This document shows, in pieces, positions 14,716 to 35,979 of a stretch of DNA of 64,000 nucleotides. Both the position numbers and the translations under genes were made by a program. The notes under the pieces were generated by a model. That model searched no databases. It was given only the letters and a program-made list of their open reading frames with translations, and had not been told where the DNA came from. The stretch comes from Kiritimatiellia bacterium. GTDB lineage: Bacteria > Verrucomicrobiota > Kiritimatiellia > RFP12 > UBA1067. The stretch covers positions 25,087 to 89,086 of the forward strand of contig JAZLJP010000118.1 in the NCBI GenBank assembly GCA_045617985.1. The letters are read 5' to 3'. How positions within the stretch are numbered: the first letter of the stretch is position 1; every line of letters begins with the position of its first letter.

Positions 14716-14770
14716 TAACCCTAAAAAAGACACAACAGGTCATTTCGCCCTTGGGCTATGCGAACGGGGG

Positions 14771-14844
14771 CATCTGAGTCCTTCACCGCGCTTTCCTCTT
14801 GTTCACGCCTAGAGCCTCGCGGGCGCGTGGGAAACGGATGGCGG
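14771..14844. repeat. ~75-nt intergenic repeat element, copy A (paralogous to 32462-32539)
   Basis: CATCTGAGT..TTCACCGCG..CCTCTTGTT..GCC.AG.GCCTCGCGGGCG..GGGAA.CG..GGCGG shares ~80% identity with the second copy. Sits directly 3' of the 14845..17949 gene stop. Confidence 0.5.
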
Positions 14845-24631: not shown

Positions 24632-26101
24632 CTAGGCCATCGCCCGGTATTCGGTGCGGATCACTTCGTCCGCCCGCGAGAGCACTTCGTTGAGCGTGCC
24701 CGTTTTCACGCGATGCCACAATTTGAGATCGTCGAGATCGGCCACCGTCACGCCGTGGCCGAAGTCGTCGTAGAACGGATCGATGTTGCGCGGCACGCCA
24801 AGGTCGATGAAAAGGACATTGCGATCCGTCACCGCTGCGGCCATGTCGCGCGTGACGACGGGCTTCGACGAATCGACGGCCGAAAGGACGATATCCGCCC
24901 CTGCAAGCGCACGCGGAATCGCCGTGAGCGGAATGAGCGCCGGCTCCACGGCCGCAGTGGCGAACATCGCATCGGCAAGGTTCGGCCGATGCACATGATA
25001 CGCCCAGGTGATTCGGCAGCCCACTTTCAAAAGCGCTTCAACAACGCCGCGGCCCACCATGCCCGTGCCGATCATGAGCACGTTCGTGCGCGCATCCACG
25101 TCGCCATGCACGCCTAGATAGCGCACCGCCACCTGGTCGATTTCCGCAACACGCAACAGCCCTTCCACCGCATGCCGCACGAGCTTCGAAACGCGCATCA
25201 CCTCGGCGCCCGTAAAGCGGATCGCGCCCGCGCTCCACTTGTTCGCTTCGGCCTCCTGAAGCGCGTCCTTCATCTGCGAGACGATGTGGAATTCGCCGAG
25301 GAGCGACGATTCAAGCCCGCTCGCAACCCGTGTGAGATGGCGGAACGCCTCGAAGCCGCGCAATTCGAATCGTTCGGCCGGTTCGAGATGGTCAAGCCCC
25401 GTGAGGCGCAGGAGAATGCCCGCCACGCGCGGGTCGCGCGCGGCGACCACCACGAGTTCCACGCGGTTACAGGTATTGAGAATGAAAAATTCGCGCACGC
25501 CCTTCACCTGCGTGAGGAGCTCGCCCAAAACGGCCCGTTCTTCCGCCGGCAGATGGTACTGCGCGCGTTTGCGGCTCGCGAGGAGCGCGTCGCTCGTTCC
25601 GATGACGAGCAGTTCCAAATCGCGGCGTGCACGGAGAAGCGCCACGATTTCGTTCTTCGCGTCGCGGGCCGAGGCGCAGCTCTGGCCGTTCGTCGAAACG
25701 GCCACCGTAAGGTCGCCGAGGCGGGCCGTGGCGGGCGTCGTAAAGTCGCCGTCGCTCCAGTTCATGTCCGCACAACAGCACGGCACGCGCGCGAGGCGCG
25801 CTTCGTCGAGAATGGCGCGGTTGACGTGTTTATCGTCCGTGCAGGCGAAGGCGACGAGATGCCCCGCCACGTCGCCCGGCGCGAACGCCCGTTGCGTCCA
25901 GGCGATCCGCCCCGCCTCGGCGAGTTCCTTCAAGCCCGCAACGGCCTCGGGGCAGATGAGCTCCACCGTGGCGCCGCACTCGAGGAGCCCGCGCGTTTTG
26001 CGCAGCCCCACCTGCCCGCCGCCCACCACGAGCGCCGCACGGCCGTCGACAATCAAATTGAGCGGGATCGTTTTCCGCTGGGGTCGTCCTTCTCTATACA
26101 T
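24632..26101 (-). CDS. hemA: fusion of siroheme-synthase-like NAD-binding (precorrin-2 dehydrogenase, Met8/CysG-N type) domain with glutamyl-tRNA reductase
   Basis: N-terminal Rossmann LIVDGRAALVVGGGQVGLRKTRGLLECGA. Then the GluTR catalytic domain (FILNTCNRVELVVV, ...HIVSQMK...) and its NADPH domain (VLMIGTGMVGRGVVEAL). Confidence 0.75.
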   Translation of the reverse strand: MYREGRPQRKTIPLNLIVDGRAALVVGGGQVGLRKTRGLLECGATVELICPEAVAGLKELAEAGRIAWTQRAFAPGDVAGHLVAFACTDDKHVNRAILDEARLARVPCCCADMNWSDGDFTTPATARLGDLTVAVSTNGQSCASARDAKNEIVALLRARRDLELLVIGTSDALLASRKRAQYHLPAEERAVLGELLTQVKGVREFFILNTCNRVELVVVAARDPRVAGILLRLTGLDHLEPAERFELRGFEAFRHLTRVASGLESSLLGEFHIVSQMKDALQEAEANKWSAGAIRFTGAEVMRVSKLVRHAVEGLLRVAEIDQVAVRYLGVHGDVDARTNVLMIGTGMVGRGVVEALLKVGCRITWAYHVHRPNLADAMFATAAVEPALIPLTAIPRALAGADIVLSAVDSSKPVVTRDMAAAVTDRNVLFIDLGVPRNIDPFYDDFGHGVTVADLDDLKLWHRVKTGTLNEVLSRADEVIRTEYRAMA

Positions 26102-29361: not shown

Positions 29362-31263
29362 TCAGGTTTCGGCGACGATGGCGAGGATGTCTTCGCCGTA
29401 GTCGTCGCGGATCTGCTGGTAGAGGCCGTAGATGTGCGACAGCGCGGCGAGGGTGCGCGGGCGCTCGGCCACTATCGCATCGAGCGTTTTGTTCGTCATG
29501 ATGCGGAAAGCGGGAAGCCCGCGTTCGTTTGAAAGATTCTTCCGCCAGGTGCGCAGCTCGGAGGCGAGCGCCACGTCCTCGGGACGCGTCGGCGCAGGGA
29601 TGGCCCGCCTCTCACGCGCCGGCACGGGTTCCTTGCGCGCCGCGGCCTTGCGTTCGTTCGCAATCTGCTGGGCAAAGGAAAGCGGAGAGGCCACCACCCG
29701 GCGCGGCCAGAGCAGCATGAAATTGTTTTCCTCCTTCTTTGCAACGCGCAGCCCCTTCGCCGTAAGGGAAATCATGTCTTCGCCATCATCCGAAAGCGCG
29801 GCGCACCCGGCCCGCACGAGCGCCTTCAAGAGGAGCGTGAGCAGTTCGGGGTCTTCATTCGGGAGAAGCCCGTAGGTGGAGAGCTTGTCGAGCGCGTTCT
29901 CCGTGATGTAGCGCGTCTTCGCGCCGAGAAGAACTTCCACCACGCGCGCAAGAGCATGCTCGCCCTTCATGCGGCCAACGCAGGAGAGGACCTTCTGAAG
30001 GATGAGCCATTGCGTTTCCGAAAGCGGATCGGGGAGTTTGCGCGGGCCGCACCGATCGCATCCGCCGCACACGTCGCCCTTCACCGTTTCGCCGAAATAG
30101 TCGAGGATGAACGCATGGCGGCACCGTGCCGTATCGCAGTAGGCCACCATCTGGCGGAGGAGCCGCCGAGCGCGCATCGGGCTCTCGCTATCCTTGAAAA
30201 AGAATTCCTGCGTGTGGACGTCGGCATAATTGAAGAGGAGTCCGCACCAGGCGGGGAGTCCGTCGCGCCCCGCACGCCCCACCTCCTGATAGTAGGCCTC
30301 CACGCTGCCGGGAATATCCCAATGGGCGACGAAACGCACGTCGGCGCGATCGACGCCCATGCCGAAGGCGTTCGTCGCAACGACCACGGGATACTTCGCC
30401 TCGATAAAACGCTTCTGCACGCGCGTACGCTCGGCGGTGTCGAGCCCGGCATGGTAGAGAAGCGCTTCCGATTCGCCGAGGTTGGCCGCCCGAAGCTTGT
30501 CGTACGCTTCCTGGGCGTGCTTGCGCGTGGCGACATAGACGATCCCCGTATGGTGCGCGTGTACGAGCGCAAGAACGTGCGCGAGCTTTTCGTCGTGCGT
30601 GCGCACGCGGCACACGGCGAGATTGAGGTTGAGGCGCGAGAAGCCCTGCACCTGCACGAAAAGCGGGCCTGCGGCCGAAGGACGGCCCTCGAGCTTCAGC
30701 TGGGCGATGATATCGCGCCGCACGTCGGGCGTGGCCGTTGCGGTCACGGCCATCACGCGCATCGCGGGATGGGCCTCGACGAGCGAGCCGAGGGTGAGAT
30801 AGTCGGGGCGGAAATCATGCCCCCACTGGCTGATGCAGTGCGCCTCGTCGACGGCCAGAAAGGAAATGTCGAGCTGTTCGAGGAAGGTGCGGAAACGCGC
30901 AAGAGCCAGACGTTCCGGCGCGATGTAGACGAGCTTGAAGCGTCCTGCGGCAAGTTCCCGAAGGCGATAGGCCTGTTCGGCGGGGTCAAGCGTCGAATTC
31001 AAATACGTAGCAGGAATATGGCGCCGCGCCAAGGCCGCCACCTGGTCGTGCATGAGCGCGATGAGCGGCGAAACCACCACGGTCACCCCCGGCATCAAAA
31101 GAGCCGTCAACTGGAAACAGAGCGACTTCCCCGCCCCCGTGGGCATCACCACCACGGCATCACGTCCATTCACCACGGCCTCGATCGGCGCATACTGCCC
31201 CGCGCGAAAGTCGTCGTGCCCGAACCAACGGTCAAGCCCTTCTCGAATCTCTTCACTCTCCAT
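29362..31263 (-). CDS. recQ: ATP-dependent DNA helicase RecQ
   Basis: 633 aa. FGHDDFRAGQ, Walker A PTGAGKSLCFQ, DEAHCISQWGHDFRPDY, RecQ-Ct zinc region and C-terminal HRDC-like tail. Confidence 0.9.
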   Translation of the reverse strand: MESEEIREGLDRWFGHDDFRAGQYAPIEAVVNGRDAVVVMPTGAGKSLCFQLTALLMPGVTVVVSPLIALMHDQVAALARRHIPATYLNSTLDPAEQAYRLRELAAGRFKLVYIAPERLALARFRTFLEQLDISFLAVDEAHCISQWGHDFRPDYLTLGSLVEAHPAMRVMAVTATATPDVRRDIIAQLKLEGRPSAAGPLFVQVQGFSRLNLNLAVCRVRTHDEKLAHVLALVHAHHTGIVYVATRKHAQEAYDKLRAANLGESEALLYHAGLDTAERTRVQKRFIEAKYPVVVATNAFGMGVDRADVRFVAHWDIPGSVEAYYQEVGRAGRDGLPAWCGLLFNYADVHTQEFFFKDSESPMRARRLLRQMVAYCDTARCRHAFILDYFGETVKGDVCGGCDRCGPRKLPDPLSETQWLILQKVLSCVGRMKGEHALARVVEVLLGAKTRYITENALDKLSTYGLLPNEDPELLTLLLKALVRAGCAALSDDGEDMISLTAKGLRVAKKEENNFMLLWPRRVVASPLSFAQQIANERKAAARKEPVPARERRAIPAPTRPEDVALASELRTWRKNLSNERGLPAFRIMTNKTLDAIVAERPRTLAALSHIYGLYQQIRDDYGEDILAIVAET

Positions 31264-31787
31264 GCGCGTATTGTAGCATATTGACGGGGCACGCGCAATT
31301 CCTTTGCGCCGAAATCAAAGTCGTCAATCCTGCGATGGTCTTCGGCATGTATCCGGCAGATCGGTTTCGGGAAGCGAAACGTATGAATATGAGTGATCCG
31401 GGAACCGGCAAAGACATCGCATTCCTTTCCATCTGCATCTTCCAATTTGAAAAAGAGCACCGGCCACGTCAGTTCTTCATGGCCACGCTGCGGCCTCCGC
31501 CCGATCTCACAGAGCGACCAAACATCTTTGGGCATGCACCTGTGGGCGTTTCCGATTCGAAGCACACGCATTCCGCCGCAAAACCGTTTTAGAACCTGGT
31601 AGGCCGTATCTTCTCCTGCCCATTCCAACAATTCATCGTCAACACGAATCTGAGTCCGCGAGATGAAATCAATCACCGTCTCGGCAGACTCGTATTCTTT
31701 CTCCTTACCATCATTACGTTCACGGGTAAACACGAGAAAAGCGACAACAGCAAGTACAACAACGACCGCACTGATCATGTATTTCAT
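31170..31787 (-). CDS. hypothetical N-terminally anchored membrane protein (low-GC island gene 1)
   Basis: ORF 31170..31835. Preferred start MKYMISAVVVVLAVVAFLVF (31787). Local GC ~48-50%. Its 3' end overlaps the recQ start by ~94 nt. No motif recognised. Confidence 0.45.
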   Translation of the reverse strand: MKYMISAVVVVLAVVAFLVFTRERNDGKEKEYESAETVIDFISRTQIRVDDELLEWAGEDTAYQVLKRFCGGMRVLRIGNAHRCMPKDVWSLCEIGRRPQRGHEELTWPVLFFKLEDADGKECDVFAGSRITHIHTFRFPKPICRIHAEDHRRIDDFDFGAKELRVPRQYATIRAWRVKRFEKGLTVGSGTTTFARGSMRRSRPW

Positions 31788-31886
31788 AACTTCTCCATTT
31801 GATAATGCGTAACTTTTGTCGGCAACGCCCACCAATCAAGTACATAGTCCGTTCCAGCAGTTTCGTCGTCTGCTTGATTGATGATT

Positions 31887-32264
31887 TCACCTTTTTTCAA
31901 TCCACAGATCACTCCCCACATCGGGATGTCTATAATAATTCCCATCAGGGCAAGGCAAATCTGCCTTCGCGGTGTAATTACGCAGCAAATCCTTGTCTAG
32001 AAGAAGTTTCAACGGTATCAGAATCGTGTTGCCGATCAGGACATGCGACTCTCCGTAGTTCGTGAGTACTCCATCCACCGACGAGAGTGCGTCTTTACCT
32101 TTCGGCATGTCCATATAACGCAATTCCTGATCATGGTGATACCGTTGTATGTAATATACTGCTCTAAACGGAAATATCGGCGTAATGTAGACCGCGCTTC
32201 CCGATACTGCCAATATGACAACCGCACACGCAATCTTCAGCACGATCTTTCCAGATTTTTTCAT
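31887..32264 (-). CDS. hypothetical signal-anchored protein (low-GC island gene 2)
   Basis: ORF 31887..32393 begins with a TTG. I prefer MKKSGKIVLKIACAVVILAVSGSA (32264), which has a GGGAGG RBS 7 nt upstream. ~125 aa. Confidence 0.45.
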   Translation of the reverse strand: MKKSGKIVLKIACAVVILAVSGSAVYITPIFPFRAVYYIQRYHHDQELRYMDMPKGKDALSSVDGVLTNYGESHVLIGNTILIPLKLLLDKDLLRNYTAKADLPCPDGNYYRHPDVGSDLWIEKR

Positions 32265-32400
32265 CGTCTGCCTCCCAATCGAGTTCCATTCACGATCATC
32301 CCATTCGTGACTTGAGAGATACAGTTCAGTGTTGCTTTTCGGGAAGGTTTCGGGTAACCTACCCGATTGTGAAAAAGGCCAACCCGAAGGCAATGAAGAC

Positions 32401-32430
32401 AGTATACACCATTATCTGTCAGATAGTCAA
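32401..32430 (-). promoter_or_regulatory. sigma-70-like promoter (TTGACT-18nt-TATACT) reading toward island gene 2
   Basis: On the reverse strand, TTGACT (32425-32430) and TATACT (32401-32406) with an 18-nt spacer. AT-rich island context. Confidence 0.4.
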
Positions 32431-32457
32431 CATCATTCCGCACAATTTGTCACTGTG

Positions 32458-32658
32458 GGCGCATCTGAGTAATTCACCGCGATCACCTCTTGTTTGAGCC
32501 GAGGGCCTCGCGGGCGCTAACGTAGGGAACGCAAGGCGGGGCACGCCCCCTCTCCCAACAGCCATCACCACCTTTTGGCCCCCCCATGCGACCTCTCGTG
32601 TCAGCTGCCGCAGGCTGGAGACCCCAAGAGTGGGCTTGGTGAAAAACTCAGATGCGCC
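32458..32658. repeat. non-coding element bounded by a perfect 13-bp inverted repeat (GGCGCATCTGAGT / ACTCAGATGCGCC); its left ~75 nt is copy B of the 14771-14844 repeat
   Basis: IR arms at 32458-32470 and 32646-32658. Imperfect IR extends ~45 nt outward. No ORF over 60 aa with coding character. Copy B shares ~80% identity with 14771-14844. Confidence 0.5.
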
Positions 32659-32978
32659 CTGTCGCTGTCCTTGTGCCTATCTGTGAGACAATATTGCGAA
32701 AATCAACATCGCCAAAGAGTACAATCCACCCAAACACAACAAAGCATTTCGGAATAAAGCCAAACAAGCACATTGTTCAATCTTCGCCACTTCTTGCGAC
32801 TCGTTAGTGTAACCAGCATCGCAAGCCGCCTGACCGCCACCATTTCCCATTCCGTCATCGCATACGCAGAATAGACGGATTACTTCGATTCCCCGCCGTT
32901 GACACGGCTGTCAACATCCTTTACAACTTCTTTTCTGGTCATGGGATCCTCTTCTCGGTTGTTTGTAATCGTGCAAGG

Positions 32979-33755
32979 CTATAGACTGGTTGTTTCATGC
33001 AATTCCTCATTCCCCATCTTCATTCGTTTCTGCGAGCCACCCATCTGGCAATTTAACGCCCACACAACAATCGCTATAAAAATTACTCCGATCAAGATCA
33101 AGCGTGTTCGCGCTGACCCACGCTTGTTATAATCTGGGAGCTGATCAACGTTAAATCCGGGCACCAAAGGCGGTTCTTCCTGTTCTTCCCCCGCAGAAGA
33201 TTCAAATTTAAGTACAGATCGAAAATTCGCATCTCCCAATGTGTACGCCCACAGCTTTCTTATGCTTGTCCTGAAAAAGATCCTGTTGACTATTAACAGT
33301 CCATCCGCAAATATGAAAAGCCATGCCACAATTTGCCCCATCGCCCATGAAGATGCCTGAATCGCATTATAAAGATGGCGACACGGAGATATCAATGACA
33401 TAAAATACAACAAGACAATTAGAGCATAAAAGACATTTCTCGTTGTGGCAGATTTGGGATTGGCAGAAAACCGGCTGGCACAATCCTTGTCGAAAATTGG
33501 GCCATACAATCTACGTCCAATTGATACCGACGATGTTAAACCTTGATCTTTAATCGGAACACATATAGCCTTGTCGACATTATATGCAAACAGATAACCC
33601 TTTGTTGTAATCATCATGCATGCCTCTATCATCGAGGTATAGGCCAACAACAAGAACACCATGATTGCATCCATAGAGACACTGCCCTCTCGCAATGAAG
33701 CGCATTGTCCTGAAAACAAGTCAGGGATTGTCATCCCCAGCATCCCAGCAGCCAA
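32979..33755 (-). CDS. hypothetical 4-TM membrane protein (low-GC island gene 3)
   Basis: 258 aa. Four predicted TM helices and an acidic cytoplasmic loop (SSAGEEQEEPP). AT-rich codon usage. The start may be the internal MDAIMVFLLLAY. Confidence 0.45.
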   Translation of the reverse strand: MAAGMLGMTIPDLFSGQCASLREGSVSMDAIMVFLLLAYTSMIEACMMITTKGYLFAYNVDKAICVPIKDQGLTSSVSIGRRLYGPIFDKDCASRFSANPKSATTRNVFYALIVLLYFMSLISPCRHLYNAIQASSWAMGQIVAWLFIFADGLLIVNRIFFRTSIRKLWAYTLGDANFRSVLKFESSAGEEQEEPPLVPGFNVDQLPDYNKRGSARTRLILIGVIFIAIVVWALNCQMGGSQKRMKMGNEELHETTSL

Positions 33756-34111
33756 AAGGCAACCCAGAAAATGGGATGCTCCCGAAGGGAAGTTGTTAGA
33801 ATTTGCCCATAAGATGTTTGTACCTCCGAGTCGGCAGGTGTCATCATATCAGAAAGCGAATTAATTCCCTCGTTTGCCCAGCCGGTAACACTCGGCTGTA
33901 CCGCACCATAAGCAGAACCATATTCTGTAGCAGTTCCCACAAAAGCCCTAACGGTTGTCATGGTTGAAACCCGTGTTATTAATCCATTTATGAATTGCTT
34001 GTTCATTTTCCTTGCTATTGCAAGATATGCCCCTGCACCCTTGTTTACACCCTTTATTCCAGGGAAGGGAATCATGGAGAAAGTTGCACTATAATACGGA
34101 CTGTCAGCCAT
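33731..34111 (-). CDS. hypothetical small Gly/Ala/Thr-rich protein with C-terminal hydrophobic tail (low-GC island gene 4)
   Basis: 126 aa. MADSPYYSATFSMIPFPGIKGVNKGAGAYLAIA... then C-terminal IFWVAFWLLGCWG. The island's GC boundary lies just upstream at ~34112-34150. Confidence 0.4.
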   Translation of the reverse strand: MADSPYYSATFSMIPFPGIKGVNKGAGAYLAIARKMNKQFINGLITRVSTMTTVRAFVGTATEYGSAYGAVQPSVTGWANEGINSLSDMMTPADSEVQTSYGQILTTSLREHPIFWVAFWLLGCWG

Positions 34112-34159
34112 TTTGACGGCGTTCGGGTAATCGGCCCGTGCGTGGGGCGGGGGGATCGG

Positions 34160-35748
34160 TTATCGGGTCAGTTCTACCCAGATGAAATCTAGCGGACGCG
34201 GCACCTCGACCACAAGCCGACAACCGGCAACTGTTCCCGTACCGCGGCCTCCGAGCACCTTCACCGACTTCACCTGCGGCAGCAGCGTACGCAGATCGAG
34301 CGTGTAGGACGAATCGCCGGCAAGTTCGCGGAAGAGCAGCGCATAGCCCTTCGTGCCGTCTTTCGCCGCCGCGACGAAACCTGTCCATGACAAGCCGTCG
34401 GGCCGCGCCCCCACGGGATAGATGTAGCCCGCATGCATCGCATCGCGATGCTGCTTCCAAGTGGCAATGAGCGGACGCCACGCCTTCGCCGTTTCGGGCG
34501 AAAGGTTCTGTATCTCGAACCAGCCCAGCGGCGAGGCGAGCATCGAAATCGCGAAGATGGCGTCGTCCGGCCAGTTGGCCGGCGCCAGCGGATCGCGGGC
34601 GGGATAGAGCTTCGGCAGCCGCCGGGGATTCAGCACTTCCATGCGCAGACGCGCAGGGTCCACGTAATGCGCGAGCGACCAGAAGTTGCGCAGCGTATGG
34701 TGCGGCCACCAGAGCCGACGTTCGTTCGCGCGAATGTAGCGGTTCTCGACAAATACGGGGCCGATCTCAGGAAAACCATAGTAGCCGGGACGCACGCCCG
34801 CCGTCACATCGAGATCGATGGTGATGCGCGCATCCGAATCCTGAATGAGCTTGCGCATGAGCTGTTGCTGACGCGACAGCGCGAGCGGCGTTGCGGACTT
34901 CAGCGAATCGAGCTTGAAGTAGTCAATGCCGAGGCGGCGATGGAGGCCGACGAGGAAATCCGCGTCCTTCTGCCAGAACTGCGCATCGTTCGAGCTGTCC
35001 GGGCCGAACCACAGGCCGAACTTCATTCCCTTCGCCTTCGCGGCGGCGACGAGCGGTTCGAGTCCATGCGGGAAACGTACGCGATCGACATCCCAGAAAT
35101 GCGGATCGTGCCAGAACGAAGCCCAGCTGCCGGTTTCGCCCTTCCGGCGGGCGGACGAATTGACGGAACGCCCCGCCTGCCAGCCGTCGTCGATCTGGAT
35201 GACGTCCACGCCGAGCTCCGCACCGGCGGCGATTTCCCTTTCGAGGAACGCCTCGTTGATGCATTCGTCGCGATGGCCGTCTCCCCAGGTGTTCGTAAGA
35301 AACACGCCGTCGCGGCCCGAAACGTACGGACGCAGCTTCCGCTGGAAGTCCGTCATCGCACGGACGCGTCCCCAGGCTCCGCCCGTGTAGGGCACTTCCA
35401 CGCAAGGCCAGTCGCTCGGCAGTACCGTGATGCCGCGGCGCGCCTCCACGCGGAAATCGGGCTTGCGCACGGGGCGCGCATGCGGAAGCGGCGCCTGCCG
35501 GAAGTAGGCGCGGCCTTCGCCCGTAAGGGAATCCTCCCAGAAAATGGCCGGCGCTTCGACGTCGAACGCCTGTTCGTTCGCCGAGAGGAGATATTCCTTC
35601 TCGAAGACGAGTTCGTCGTGGCTGTCGGTCGAGTCGACGAGTTGAAGAATCGTCAGCCGCGGATGCGCGCACACAGGTACGGAAGCGGCCGTCAGAGGAA
35701 GCACGCTGGACAGGAGCGCCAGCCCGGCAATTTCAAGATTTTTCATAA
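34160..35748 (-). CDS. secreted alpha-galactosidase-like glycoside hydrolase (GH36/GH27 clan, DDGW motif)
   Basis: ORF 34160..36016. Real start MKNLEIAGLALLSSVLPLTAASVP at 35748; the 5' extension merely translates the intergenic repeats. Catalytic-region motifs VIQIDDGWQ, KFGLWFGPD, YFKLDS. Confidence 0.7.
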
Positions 35749-35806
35749 CCCCGAAATTATAGCCCACACCACCGCCCTCTGTCAATCCCGAACGGCCATC
35801 ATTCAA

Positions 35807-35850
35807 ATCTTCACGGGGACAGTCCCTAATCTTCACGGGGACAGTCCCCT
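35807..35850. repeat. two tandem ~22-nt repeats each carrying the palindrome GGGGACAGTCCC(C)
   Basis: ATCTTCACGGGGACAGTCCCT then AATCTTCACGGGGACAGTCCCCT. Confidence 0.8.
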
Positions 35851-35861
35851 TACAAAATCGG

Positions 35862-35892
35862 ATGCGAAAACAGGTCTGACCTGTTTTCGCAT
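35862..35892. repeat. perfect 31-nt palindrome ATGCGAAAACAGGTC-T-GACCTGTTTTCGCAT
   Basis: 15-nt arms, 1-nt centre. Lies midway between the two repeat arrays in a divergent intergenic region. Confidence 0.85.
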
Positions 35893-35907
35893 AAACTTTT
35901 AAGCCTG

Positions 35908-35979
35908 TTTGGGGACTGTCCCCCCCAAATCTTTGGGGACTGTCCCCCCAGATCTTTTGGGGACTGTCCCCCCCCGGAT
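35908..35979. repeat. three tandem 24-nt repeats TTTGGGGACTGTCCCCCC(C)NNATC carrying the same 13-bp palindrome in opposite orientation
   Basis: Copies at 35908-35931, 35932-35955 and 35956-35979. The core GGGGACTGTCCCC is the reverse complement of the core in the 35807-35850 array. Confidence 0.85.

Follow-up and report, generated by a model that had tools for sequence, protein, structure and literature searches.

How does a 2.9-kb segment of low guanine-plus-cytosine (GC) content come to lie between recQ and a glycosidase gene in a chromosome of much higher GC content, and what might its genes do? The question is raised by a stretch of 64,000 nucleotides (the window; positions 25,087 to 89,086 of contig JAZLJP010000118.1, assembly GCA_045617985.1) from a member of the Kiritimatiellia, to which the RecQ relatives found in a genome scan also belong (metagenome-assembled genomes of Kiritimatiellia, 55-62% identity). 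An earlier interpretation made from the letters of the DNA, called here the sequence-only reading, had seen in the segment a recent horizontal acquisition of four small membrane or secreted proteins and a structured non-coding element, resembling toxin/immunity, bacteriocin or anti-phage modules. The analysis presented below makes it very probable that displaced ("orphan") Rhs/YD toxin tips and immunity genes, in a degenerate array, make up the island; a seemingly orphan, defence-like island can thus now be explained as leftovers of polymorphic-toxin exchange. This kind of locus is already known; the toxin and immunity families, and the phylum, are new.

The drop in base composition was confirmed by windowed measurement. 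Positions 31266-34119 have a GC content of 0.475, or 0.462 if the inverted-repeat element that they contain is excluded, compared with 0.626 for the remaining 61 kb of the window; the steps are sharp at both island edges, and the dip is single in the 64 kb, every other 1-kb bin having a value of at least 0.57. The island is covered by four minus-strand open reading frames (ORFs), P1 to P4, which were found with the lengths that had been described and with hydropathy patterns that agree. Their lengths exceed what chance would give: a stop-free run equal to the longest one here (289 codons) arose in 4 of 2000 Markov shuffles, and the total long-ORF length was reached in 23 of 2000. The first-position purine bias peaks in the annotated frame for all four. 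A ratio of nonsynonymous to synonymous substitution rates (dN/dS) of about 1, which the sequence-only reading had named as the mark of an absent coding signature, was not what was found. Wherever it could be measured, across P3 and the P1 N-terminus, dN/dS was 0.20-0.35, and the corresponding ratio of proportions (pN/pS) of P4 was approximately 0.25; the island sequences thus evolved as coding DNA, the values mostly reflecting the time before the lesions described below.

The affiliation of these ORFs was not apparent from conventional annotation. Neither they nor alternative-frame ORFs had matches in Pfam, PADLOC, PHROG or NCBIfam (with PADLOC, none at E<=1 for six island ORFs), and sequence searches of the PDB with P1, the P3 profile and both of the toxin types introduced below found no relatives. 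The concatenated ORFs also drew a blank in a word-indexed search covering 5.8 billion proteins, a false negative given the outcome of an exhaustive HMMER search of 1.84 billion cluster representatives. The latter gave 35 matches, divided among P3 (16), P2 (14), P4 (four) and P1 (one), and it was this exhaustive profile search alone that revealed the families, a caution for annotation. The absence of recognisable domains noted previously therefore holds with respect to the four domain and profile collections, but clear homologues of P2, P3 and P4 do exist.

It is P4 that connects the island to polymorphic toxins. The protein matches the C-terminal parts of two larger proteins, P0008 (388 residues) and P0015 (610 residues), aligning by tblastn to residues 269-371 of the former (63%) and 500-592 of the latter. 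The TIGR03696 profile of the Rhs-associated core, which has a cut-off of 32.5 bits, scores 77 bits in P0008 (residues 80-164) and 66 bits in P0015 (residues 303-399). The core-end sequence GRWLNRDPIEEEGGxNLYAFCxNNPxxYYDxNG is present in both, and YD repeats are present in P0015. The region that P4 matches lies approximately 105 residues beyond the core in both proteins and corresponds to the latter half of the variable toxin domain; every homologue with a complete N-terminus is fused to an Rhs core. In the island, tblastn homology to P0008 and P0015 starts no earlier than residues 269 and 500, respectively. The TIGR03696 and RHS_repeat profiles do not match P4, and 5' of the tip there is no piece of an Rhs core, no core-end motif (..DPxG..) and no YD repeat. 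An alignment of the family (A1) further indicated that the toxin domain is represented in P4 without its first ~100 residues and without its conserved last ~24 (..VTDKCGNxVxLYYxxE), and that ~8 N-terminal and ~20 C-terminal residues of the ORF are not toxin-derived. Judged by these alignments, P4 is an internal fragment of an Rhs/YD toxin C-terminal (CT) domain, truncated at both ends. No signal peptide or leader was recognized in its hydropathy profile, and its earlier description as a free-standing secreted peptide toxin is not tenable for an internal piece of an Rhs CT that has neither shell nor ends. Upstream of P0015 itself, a gene at L081 33-962 (homologous loci are cited here by L numbers) has a faint match to the immunity family SMI1_KNR4, suggesting that P0015 is itself a displaced copy within a longer toxin-immunity array.

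In polymorphic toxin loci, the toxin is followed by its immunity gene as a standard order, and the P3 family occupies the second of these positions. Its best member is P0001 (56% identity, E=6e-80), the start of which is overlapped in L082 and L083 by the last 8 nt of a P4-type domain. In L081, the gene for the Rhs protein P0015 overlaps the next ORF downstream by 11 nt, and this ORF opens with the N-terminus typical of the P3 family, MDDNKQFLFTANGSYF. Given that a P3 homologue directly follows a P4-type CT in all three loci, P3 is presumed to be the immunity gene of the P4-type toxin. It is 95% identical to L085 over 278 nt, its body is stop-free over 254 codons and its dN/dS is 0.20-0.32; a match to the SpoIISA-type toxin profile (Pfam PF14171) gave 15.1 bits, below the cut-off of 27.

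The window's copy of this toxin-immunity junction is damaged. The distance from GATATGATGAC to the motif CCC(T/A)TC(G/T)GG is 147 nt in L082 vs 61 nt in the window, which implies a deletion of 86 nt in the latter. This deletion took the 3' end of the toxin together with the start codon and first ~8 codons of the immunity gene, so that upstream the P3 frame reads ..ANSNNFPSGASHFLG, the homologues having MNxxKQYLFPSGASHFLG. No ATG, GTG or TTG occurs in the frame before 33755, and the usable starts (TTG 33755, ATG 33743 and ATG 33734) all lie inside the first transmembrane (TM) segment, TM1; TM1 is thus truncated, and four hydrophobic segments are left of the five TM segments of the homologues. 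Since the deletion also joined the two genes out of frame, what had been described as a hydrophobic tail of P4 is P3's lost TM1 read out of frame. The P4 stop codon overlaps a P3 ATG (ATGA, ~33731-33734). The toxin/immunity guess of the sequence-only reading was accordingly correct in part: P4 originates from a toxin domain and P3 is its conserved downstream partner, but the pair is not intact.

The stretch between P3 and P2, which had been regarded as free of ORFs, was found to contain two further gene fragments (Table 1), together with the inverted-repeat element and the TTGACT-18-TATACT site that had been reported there. The first fragment, a pseudogene, has 84% amino acid and 83% nucleotide identity with L086 12858-13058, which opens an ORF of at least 177 residues for a membrane protein in another low-GC island; at 32882-32880 the window has an in-frame TAA where L086 has CGT. 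The second has 90% nucleotide and 79% amino acid identity with L085 1301-1378, the end of a gene that is intact in L085 (119 residues). There, 5 nt separate the start of this gene from the stop codon of an Rhs gene, the product of which combines a TIGR03696 core with a different tip. On these homologies, the 57- and 51-residue ORFs of the stretch are artefacts of the gene fragments. A type I toxin-antitoxin system composed of the hydrophobic 57-residue ORF (32677-32850) and the inverted-repeat element was also considered and rejected, the tail of this ORF being the 3' end of the 119-residue L085 gene. Rather than a compact and intact cassette, the island is therefore a mosaic marked by the 86-nt deletion, the nonsense codon and truncated fragments.

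P2 fared better. It is full length relative to its 14 homologues and keeps all of the residues conserved in the family, and structure prediction, one of the checks proposed with the sequence-only reading, returned a confident fold: an AlphaFold2 (AF2) model with a predicted local distance difference test (pLDDT) score of 95.5, comprising a TM helix (residues 3-27) and an alpha/beta domain. In four contexts (L090-92, L094, L095 and L096/L097), P2 homologues lie directly downstream of one unannotated ORF family with the motif VDHxWWDxYDWHxGLSAFxPGFGN..DADAQR..EWTQ. Rhs/YD genes occur at two of the four: a YD-repeat gene downstream in L092 and a YD-shell gene upstream in L096/L097, where the partner ORF, P0156, comes after an Rhs/YD-shell protein with the core-end motif. 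From this position directly behind the "VDHxWWD" ORF, P2 is best read as the putative immunity protein of a second toxin type, represented by the VDHxWWDxYDWHxGLSA...EWTQ ORF. The partner family itself was not detected in the 64-kb window by tblastn. Concerning the partner's own organization, the Rhs/YD-shell protein (L096 3-2884 and L097 657-2251) ends ~70 residues past the core motif and P0156 is a separate gene with a 4-nt overlap with the shell in two independent assemblies, an arrangement reflecting either a truly split toxin or a shared frameshift.

The remaining ORF, P1, has relatives for its first part only. Its first 57 codons and the 24 nt upstream of them resemble P0013 (70 residues) of L086-L089, with 89% nucleotide identity over 198 nt and a dN/dS of 0.35 over 58 codons; by HMMER, P0013 matches just the first 59 residues of P1, and residues 60-205 have no homologue in the 1.84 billion representatives. 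The remaining 148 codons have 53% GC and run 94 nt into recQ, the last 31 of them (31170-31263) sharing their DNA, in a different frame, with codons 1-31 of recQ; the natural end of P1 may have been lost at the island boundary. In the four related contigs, the P0013-type ORF adjoins a different housekeeping gene. One of these settings, at L086 10001-13388 (ENA ERZ27247096 k141_1048041), is a low-GC island, with an insertion sequence, of a related member of the Kiritimatiellia situated at a different site, after a gene for an oxidoreductase dependent on flavin adenine dinucleotide (FAD); it is opened by a truncated P1-like ORF and also contains genes for a DDE transposase, for a membrane protein of 261 residues and, in intact form, for the MTRKEVV.. 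membrane protein.

That the L086 island shares its cassettes with the window at another site suggests that the same cassettes move between loci. Related cassettes have a GC content of ~0.40-0.48 in every context, including those that adjoin Rhs cores of 0.57-0.63 (L081, L096) and those at the other chromosomal site within the 0.60-0.65 GC chromosome of the relatives (L086-L089). As they are low in GC everywhere, the low GC is a property of exchangeable tips and immunity genes, in agreement with the model of lateral tip displacement put forward for the rhs loci of enterobacteria (PMC2935791). The horizontal origin claimed in the sequence-only reading is to this extent plausible, in the sense of foreign, laterally exchanged DNA.

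Table 1. Coordinates of the features of the island and its two flanking genes, in window positions (TM, transmembrane).
Feature	Positions	Strand	Description or basis
recQ (flank, host GC)	29362..31263	-	Pfam DEAD, Helicase_C, RecQ_Zn_bind, RQC, HRDC
P1, 205 residues, TM-anchored	31170..31787	-	One N-terminal hydrophobic helix
P2, 125 residues, small TM-anchored alpha/beta protein	31887..32264	-	One N-terminal helix
Sigma-70-like TTGACT-18-TATACT	32401..32430	-	10/12 consensus; 137 nt upstream of P2
Inverted-repeat-bounded element, 203 bp	32457..32659	.	Host-like GC, 0.635
3' end fragment of 119-residue multi-TM immunity-type gene	32677..32751	-	Last 24 codons and stop; L085 homology
Pseudogene of membrane-protein gene (MTRKEVVKDVD...)	32742..32942	-	5' 67 codons, 3' truncated; L086 homology
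P3, presumed immunity gene of P4-type toxin	32979..33792	-	ORF 32979-33755, 258 residues from TTG start
86-nt deletion junction	33790..33800	-	Toxin 3' region fused to immunity 5' region out of frame; landmark distances
P4, 126 residues, relic of Rhs/YD polymorphic-toxin CT domain	33731..34111	-	Homology ~33797-34087
GH36/melibiase-like glycosidase (flank, host GC)	34160..35746	-	Pfam Melibiase, E=4e-9; start probably ATG 35746

Taken in the 5' to 3' direction of the minus strand, the island comprises P4, P3, the nonsense-bearing fragment, the 3' tail of a third gene, the inverted-repeat element with the promoter-like site, P2 and P1. Tips and immunity genes are proposed to have been swapped laterally and displaced by recombination, which would explain both the low GC content and the mosaic structure. 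No Rhs/YD gene was found elsewhere in the 64-kb window by tblastn and, with no Rhs shell or core present, nothing here could be delivered as a toxin. Immunity is what selection could still act on: if expressed today, P2 (the best candidate) and possibly the truncated P3 (a doubtful one) would serve as cytoplasmic-membrane proteins neutralising matching Rhs toxins from neighbouring cells, the rest of the island decaying. The intact P4-type toxin, for its part, probably acts on the membrane, given the Gly/Ala-rich, hydrophobic N-terminal half of its domain (38% Gly+Ala in the first 80 residues, with hydrophobic helices) and its polytopic membrane immunity protein; by analogy it may be a pore former or depolariser like the toxin of the Tse5/Tsi5 pair. 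The locus is an indication of Rhs-type antagonism in Kiritimatiellia, accompanied by a turnover of low-GC toxin tips, and it offers two testable pairs that have no Pfam or PDB relatives, namely the P0008/P0015-type CT with P0001/P3 and the P0156-type ORF with the P2 family.

Several observations weigh against this interpretation. Classical displaced tips usually keep a fragment of the Rhs core (PMC2935791), and none accompanies P4; nor is there a full-length Rhs gene in the 64 kb, which sets the island apart from canonical arrays, with their rhs gene upstream. Position and architecture are the basis on which toxin or immunity roles were assigned to the P4, P3, P2 and "VDH.." families, which have no relative in Pfam, NCBIfam or the PDB, and the model of the toxin CT was unusable as a guide to its mode of action (pLDDT 35). 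P3 may be non-functional without TM1, and P1 is left unexplained by the toxin/immunity account. The promoter-like site is not above chance, five such matches having been found in the region vs 4.1 expected from shuffles. Finally, no syntenic relative was found, and an insertion and the remnant of a larger locus are consequently indistinguishable. Metagenomic RecQ relatives reach 86-87% identity, and the closest recQ relative with flanks (86%) has uvrB directly upstream and no island; as it is not syntenic, the recQ-junction comparison that had been proposed yielded a relative without the island but no empty site.

The degenerate array has its closest counterparts in Enterobacteriaceae, in which displaced Rhs tips likewise form arrays (Jackson et al., 2009; PMC2935791) and orphan rhs-CT/rhsI pairs are known from Salmonella (PMC7043789). 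In common with these, a toxin CT is separated from its Rhs shell, a small immunity gene follows it, fragments form mosaic arrays and the composition is unlike that of core and host, with lateral exchange inferred. In contrast to them, the island has no core fragment, no hyperconserved core-end motif and no upstream full-length rhs gene in the window; its tip is cut at both ends, its families are unrelated to those described, and it belongs to the phylum Kiritimatiellota, with no type VI secretion system context seen. Orphan immunity arrays, as known from the AID clusters of Bacteroidales (bioRxiv 10.1101/471110), from orphan Rhs immunity genes of Serratia (PMC10539506) and from a poly-immunity cluster in Stenotrophomonas (bioRxiv 10.64898/2026.07.13.738213), likewise hold immunity-type genes of several specificities side by side with no cognate toxin nearby and show evidence of lateral origin, and by analogy the island's genes may similarly protect against the toxins of neighbours. 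Unlike these arrays, the island is very small, most of it is degraded and a single gene is clearly intact; the window has no recombinase or mobile-element backbone. Tse5 (RhsP1) of Pseudomonas aeruginosa is a pore-forming Rhs toxin countered by the integral-membrane immunity protein Tsi5 (PMC9637101, PMC10684867). It resembles the P4 and P3 families in consisting of an Rhs-delivered CT with hydrophobic stretches and no predicted enzymatic domain, paired with an integral-membrane immunity protein; sequence similarity was not detected, and the P3 family has five TM segments vs two in Tsi5, such that the proposed analogy would be one of function.

How much of the array still works is a separate matter. 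That both P2 and P3 still function as orphan immunity proteins directed against the Rhs toxins of neighbours, and representatives of two undescribed toxin-immunity pairs, is possible but doubtful. If they were, Rhs contact warfare and defence by stockpiled immunity would be extended to a phylum not studied for it, the first pair consisting of a Gly/Ala-rich, probably membrane-depolarising Rhs CT and a five-TM immunity protein, and the second of a "VDHxWWDxYDWH" toxin and a TM-anchored alpha/beta immunity protein. Somewhat less likely again is the opposite extreme, by which the entire island, P2 and P1 included, is non-functional junk in decay. At least four lesions in 2.9 kb (the two truncated fragments, one nonsense codon and the 86-nt deletion) and the run of P1 into recQ accord with this; the integrity, conserved residues and confident fold of P2 do not, the P1 and P3 frames are open for far longer than chance would allow at this GC content, and dN/dS is below 0.4 where measurable, though this is mostly a record of the history before the lesions. 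Pure junk is hence possible for everything except, probably, P2.

Orphan rhs-CT/rhsI pairs of Salmonella have been shown to be internally expressed toxin-antitoxin modules (PMC7043789), a precedent by which P4 and P3 might together form a module for addiction or growth control. The frames are translationally coupled through the overlapping ATGA and the body of P3 is open, but the toxin fragment has lost both of its ends, the strongly conserved C-terminal residues among them, the immunity gene is without TM1 and the promoter match is no better than in shuffles, leaving this explanation improbable. The bacteriocin-like module imagined in the sequence-only reading, with P4 as an intact secreted Gly-rich peptide toxin and P3 as its immunity or export partner, is more improbable still: P4 does adjoin P3, with the overlap of stop and start codons, and the two do come from a toxin family and its partner family, but alignment A1 largely refuted the idea, as P4 has lost ~100 residues from the start of the domain and ~24 from its end and is without delivery parts, a signal peptide or a leader, its tail is frameshifted P3 TM1, and the homologues with complete N-termini are all fused to Rhs cores.

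There is also very little to recommend an abortive-infection or anti-phage cassette functionally linked to recQ, for which the sole support is the defence-island look typical of a low-GC island of small membrane proteins. PADLOC and PHROG gave no matches, blastn of the island against phage and plasmid collections found nothing, scans of IMG/VR with P3 and P2 found no viral relatives, the homologues reside in Rhs loci and not in defence islands, and the 86% recQ relative, with uvrB upstream, does without the island; the earlier suggestion of a link to recQ or to anti-phage defence accordingly found no support. Least credible of all is an assembly chimera, in which low-GC foreign reads were mis-joined into a high-GC contig, given that the sharp GC steps at both edges are offset by the continuity of the P1 ORF and the GC gradient into recQ, by a host-GC repeat inside the island and by independent assemblies of relatives (L086-L089; L081, L096) that carry such low-GC cassettes in high-GC surroundings.

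That repeat, the 203-bp element, had been counted as a structured component of the cassette. Its host-like GC content and a second copy elsewhere indicate otherwise. The arms, at 32457-32478 and 32638-32659, are 22 nt long, complementary at 20 of 22 positions (91%) and 159 nt apart, and the element folds better than shuffles on both strands (z = -4.1 and -3.6); Rfam gave no match to the island at E<=1. The partial second copy, at 14760-14844 and 17.6 kb away, includes one arm and ~60 nt (77% identity over 83 nt), the similarity amounting to ~76% over ~150 nt and reaching into the downstream promoter-like stretch; on its own, this copy has no structure signal (z = +0.8). It is intergenic, lying between the stop of a gene for a 1068-residue F5/8-type-C protein and the promoter region of a nucleoside-hydrolase gene. 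No clear target-site duplication was found at the ends of 32457-32659, the partial copy is the one extra within the 64 kb, and a metagenome pattern scan with the conserved arm gave a single chance match, inside an unrelated gene. By these features the element may be a genome repeat, an element resembling a miniature inverted-repeat transposable element (MITE) or a regulatory segment.

Beside the element, the TTGACT-18-TATACT site is a possible candidate promoter for P2 and P1. Flanking direct repeats that might represent att sites or target duplications were short and at the level of chance, and neither a recombinase nor a tRNA was found in or beside the island (ORF list and tRNA scan). A 17-nt direct repeat, TTCGGGTAA(C/T)C..CCCG, with 14 of 17 matches, has one copy between the promoter-like site and P2 (32349-32365) and the other exactly at the right island edge (34122-34138); chance is a possible explanation.

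Beyond this edge, the glycosidase ORF begins at 35746 with the signal-peptide-like sequence MKNLEIAGLALL.. and has a structured upstream region (35806-35974 and 35756-35785). This region contains five copies of the palindrome GGGACAGTCCC, of which three form a 24-nt tandem array and the other two a 22-nt tandem array; they are suggestive of operators through which a regulator would control the glycosidase gene. The copies are followed by a perfect TTGACA-18-TATAAT, the -10 box of which ends 9 nt before ATG 35746, implying a near-leaderless glycosidase mRNA.

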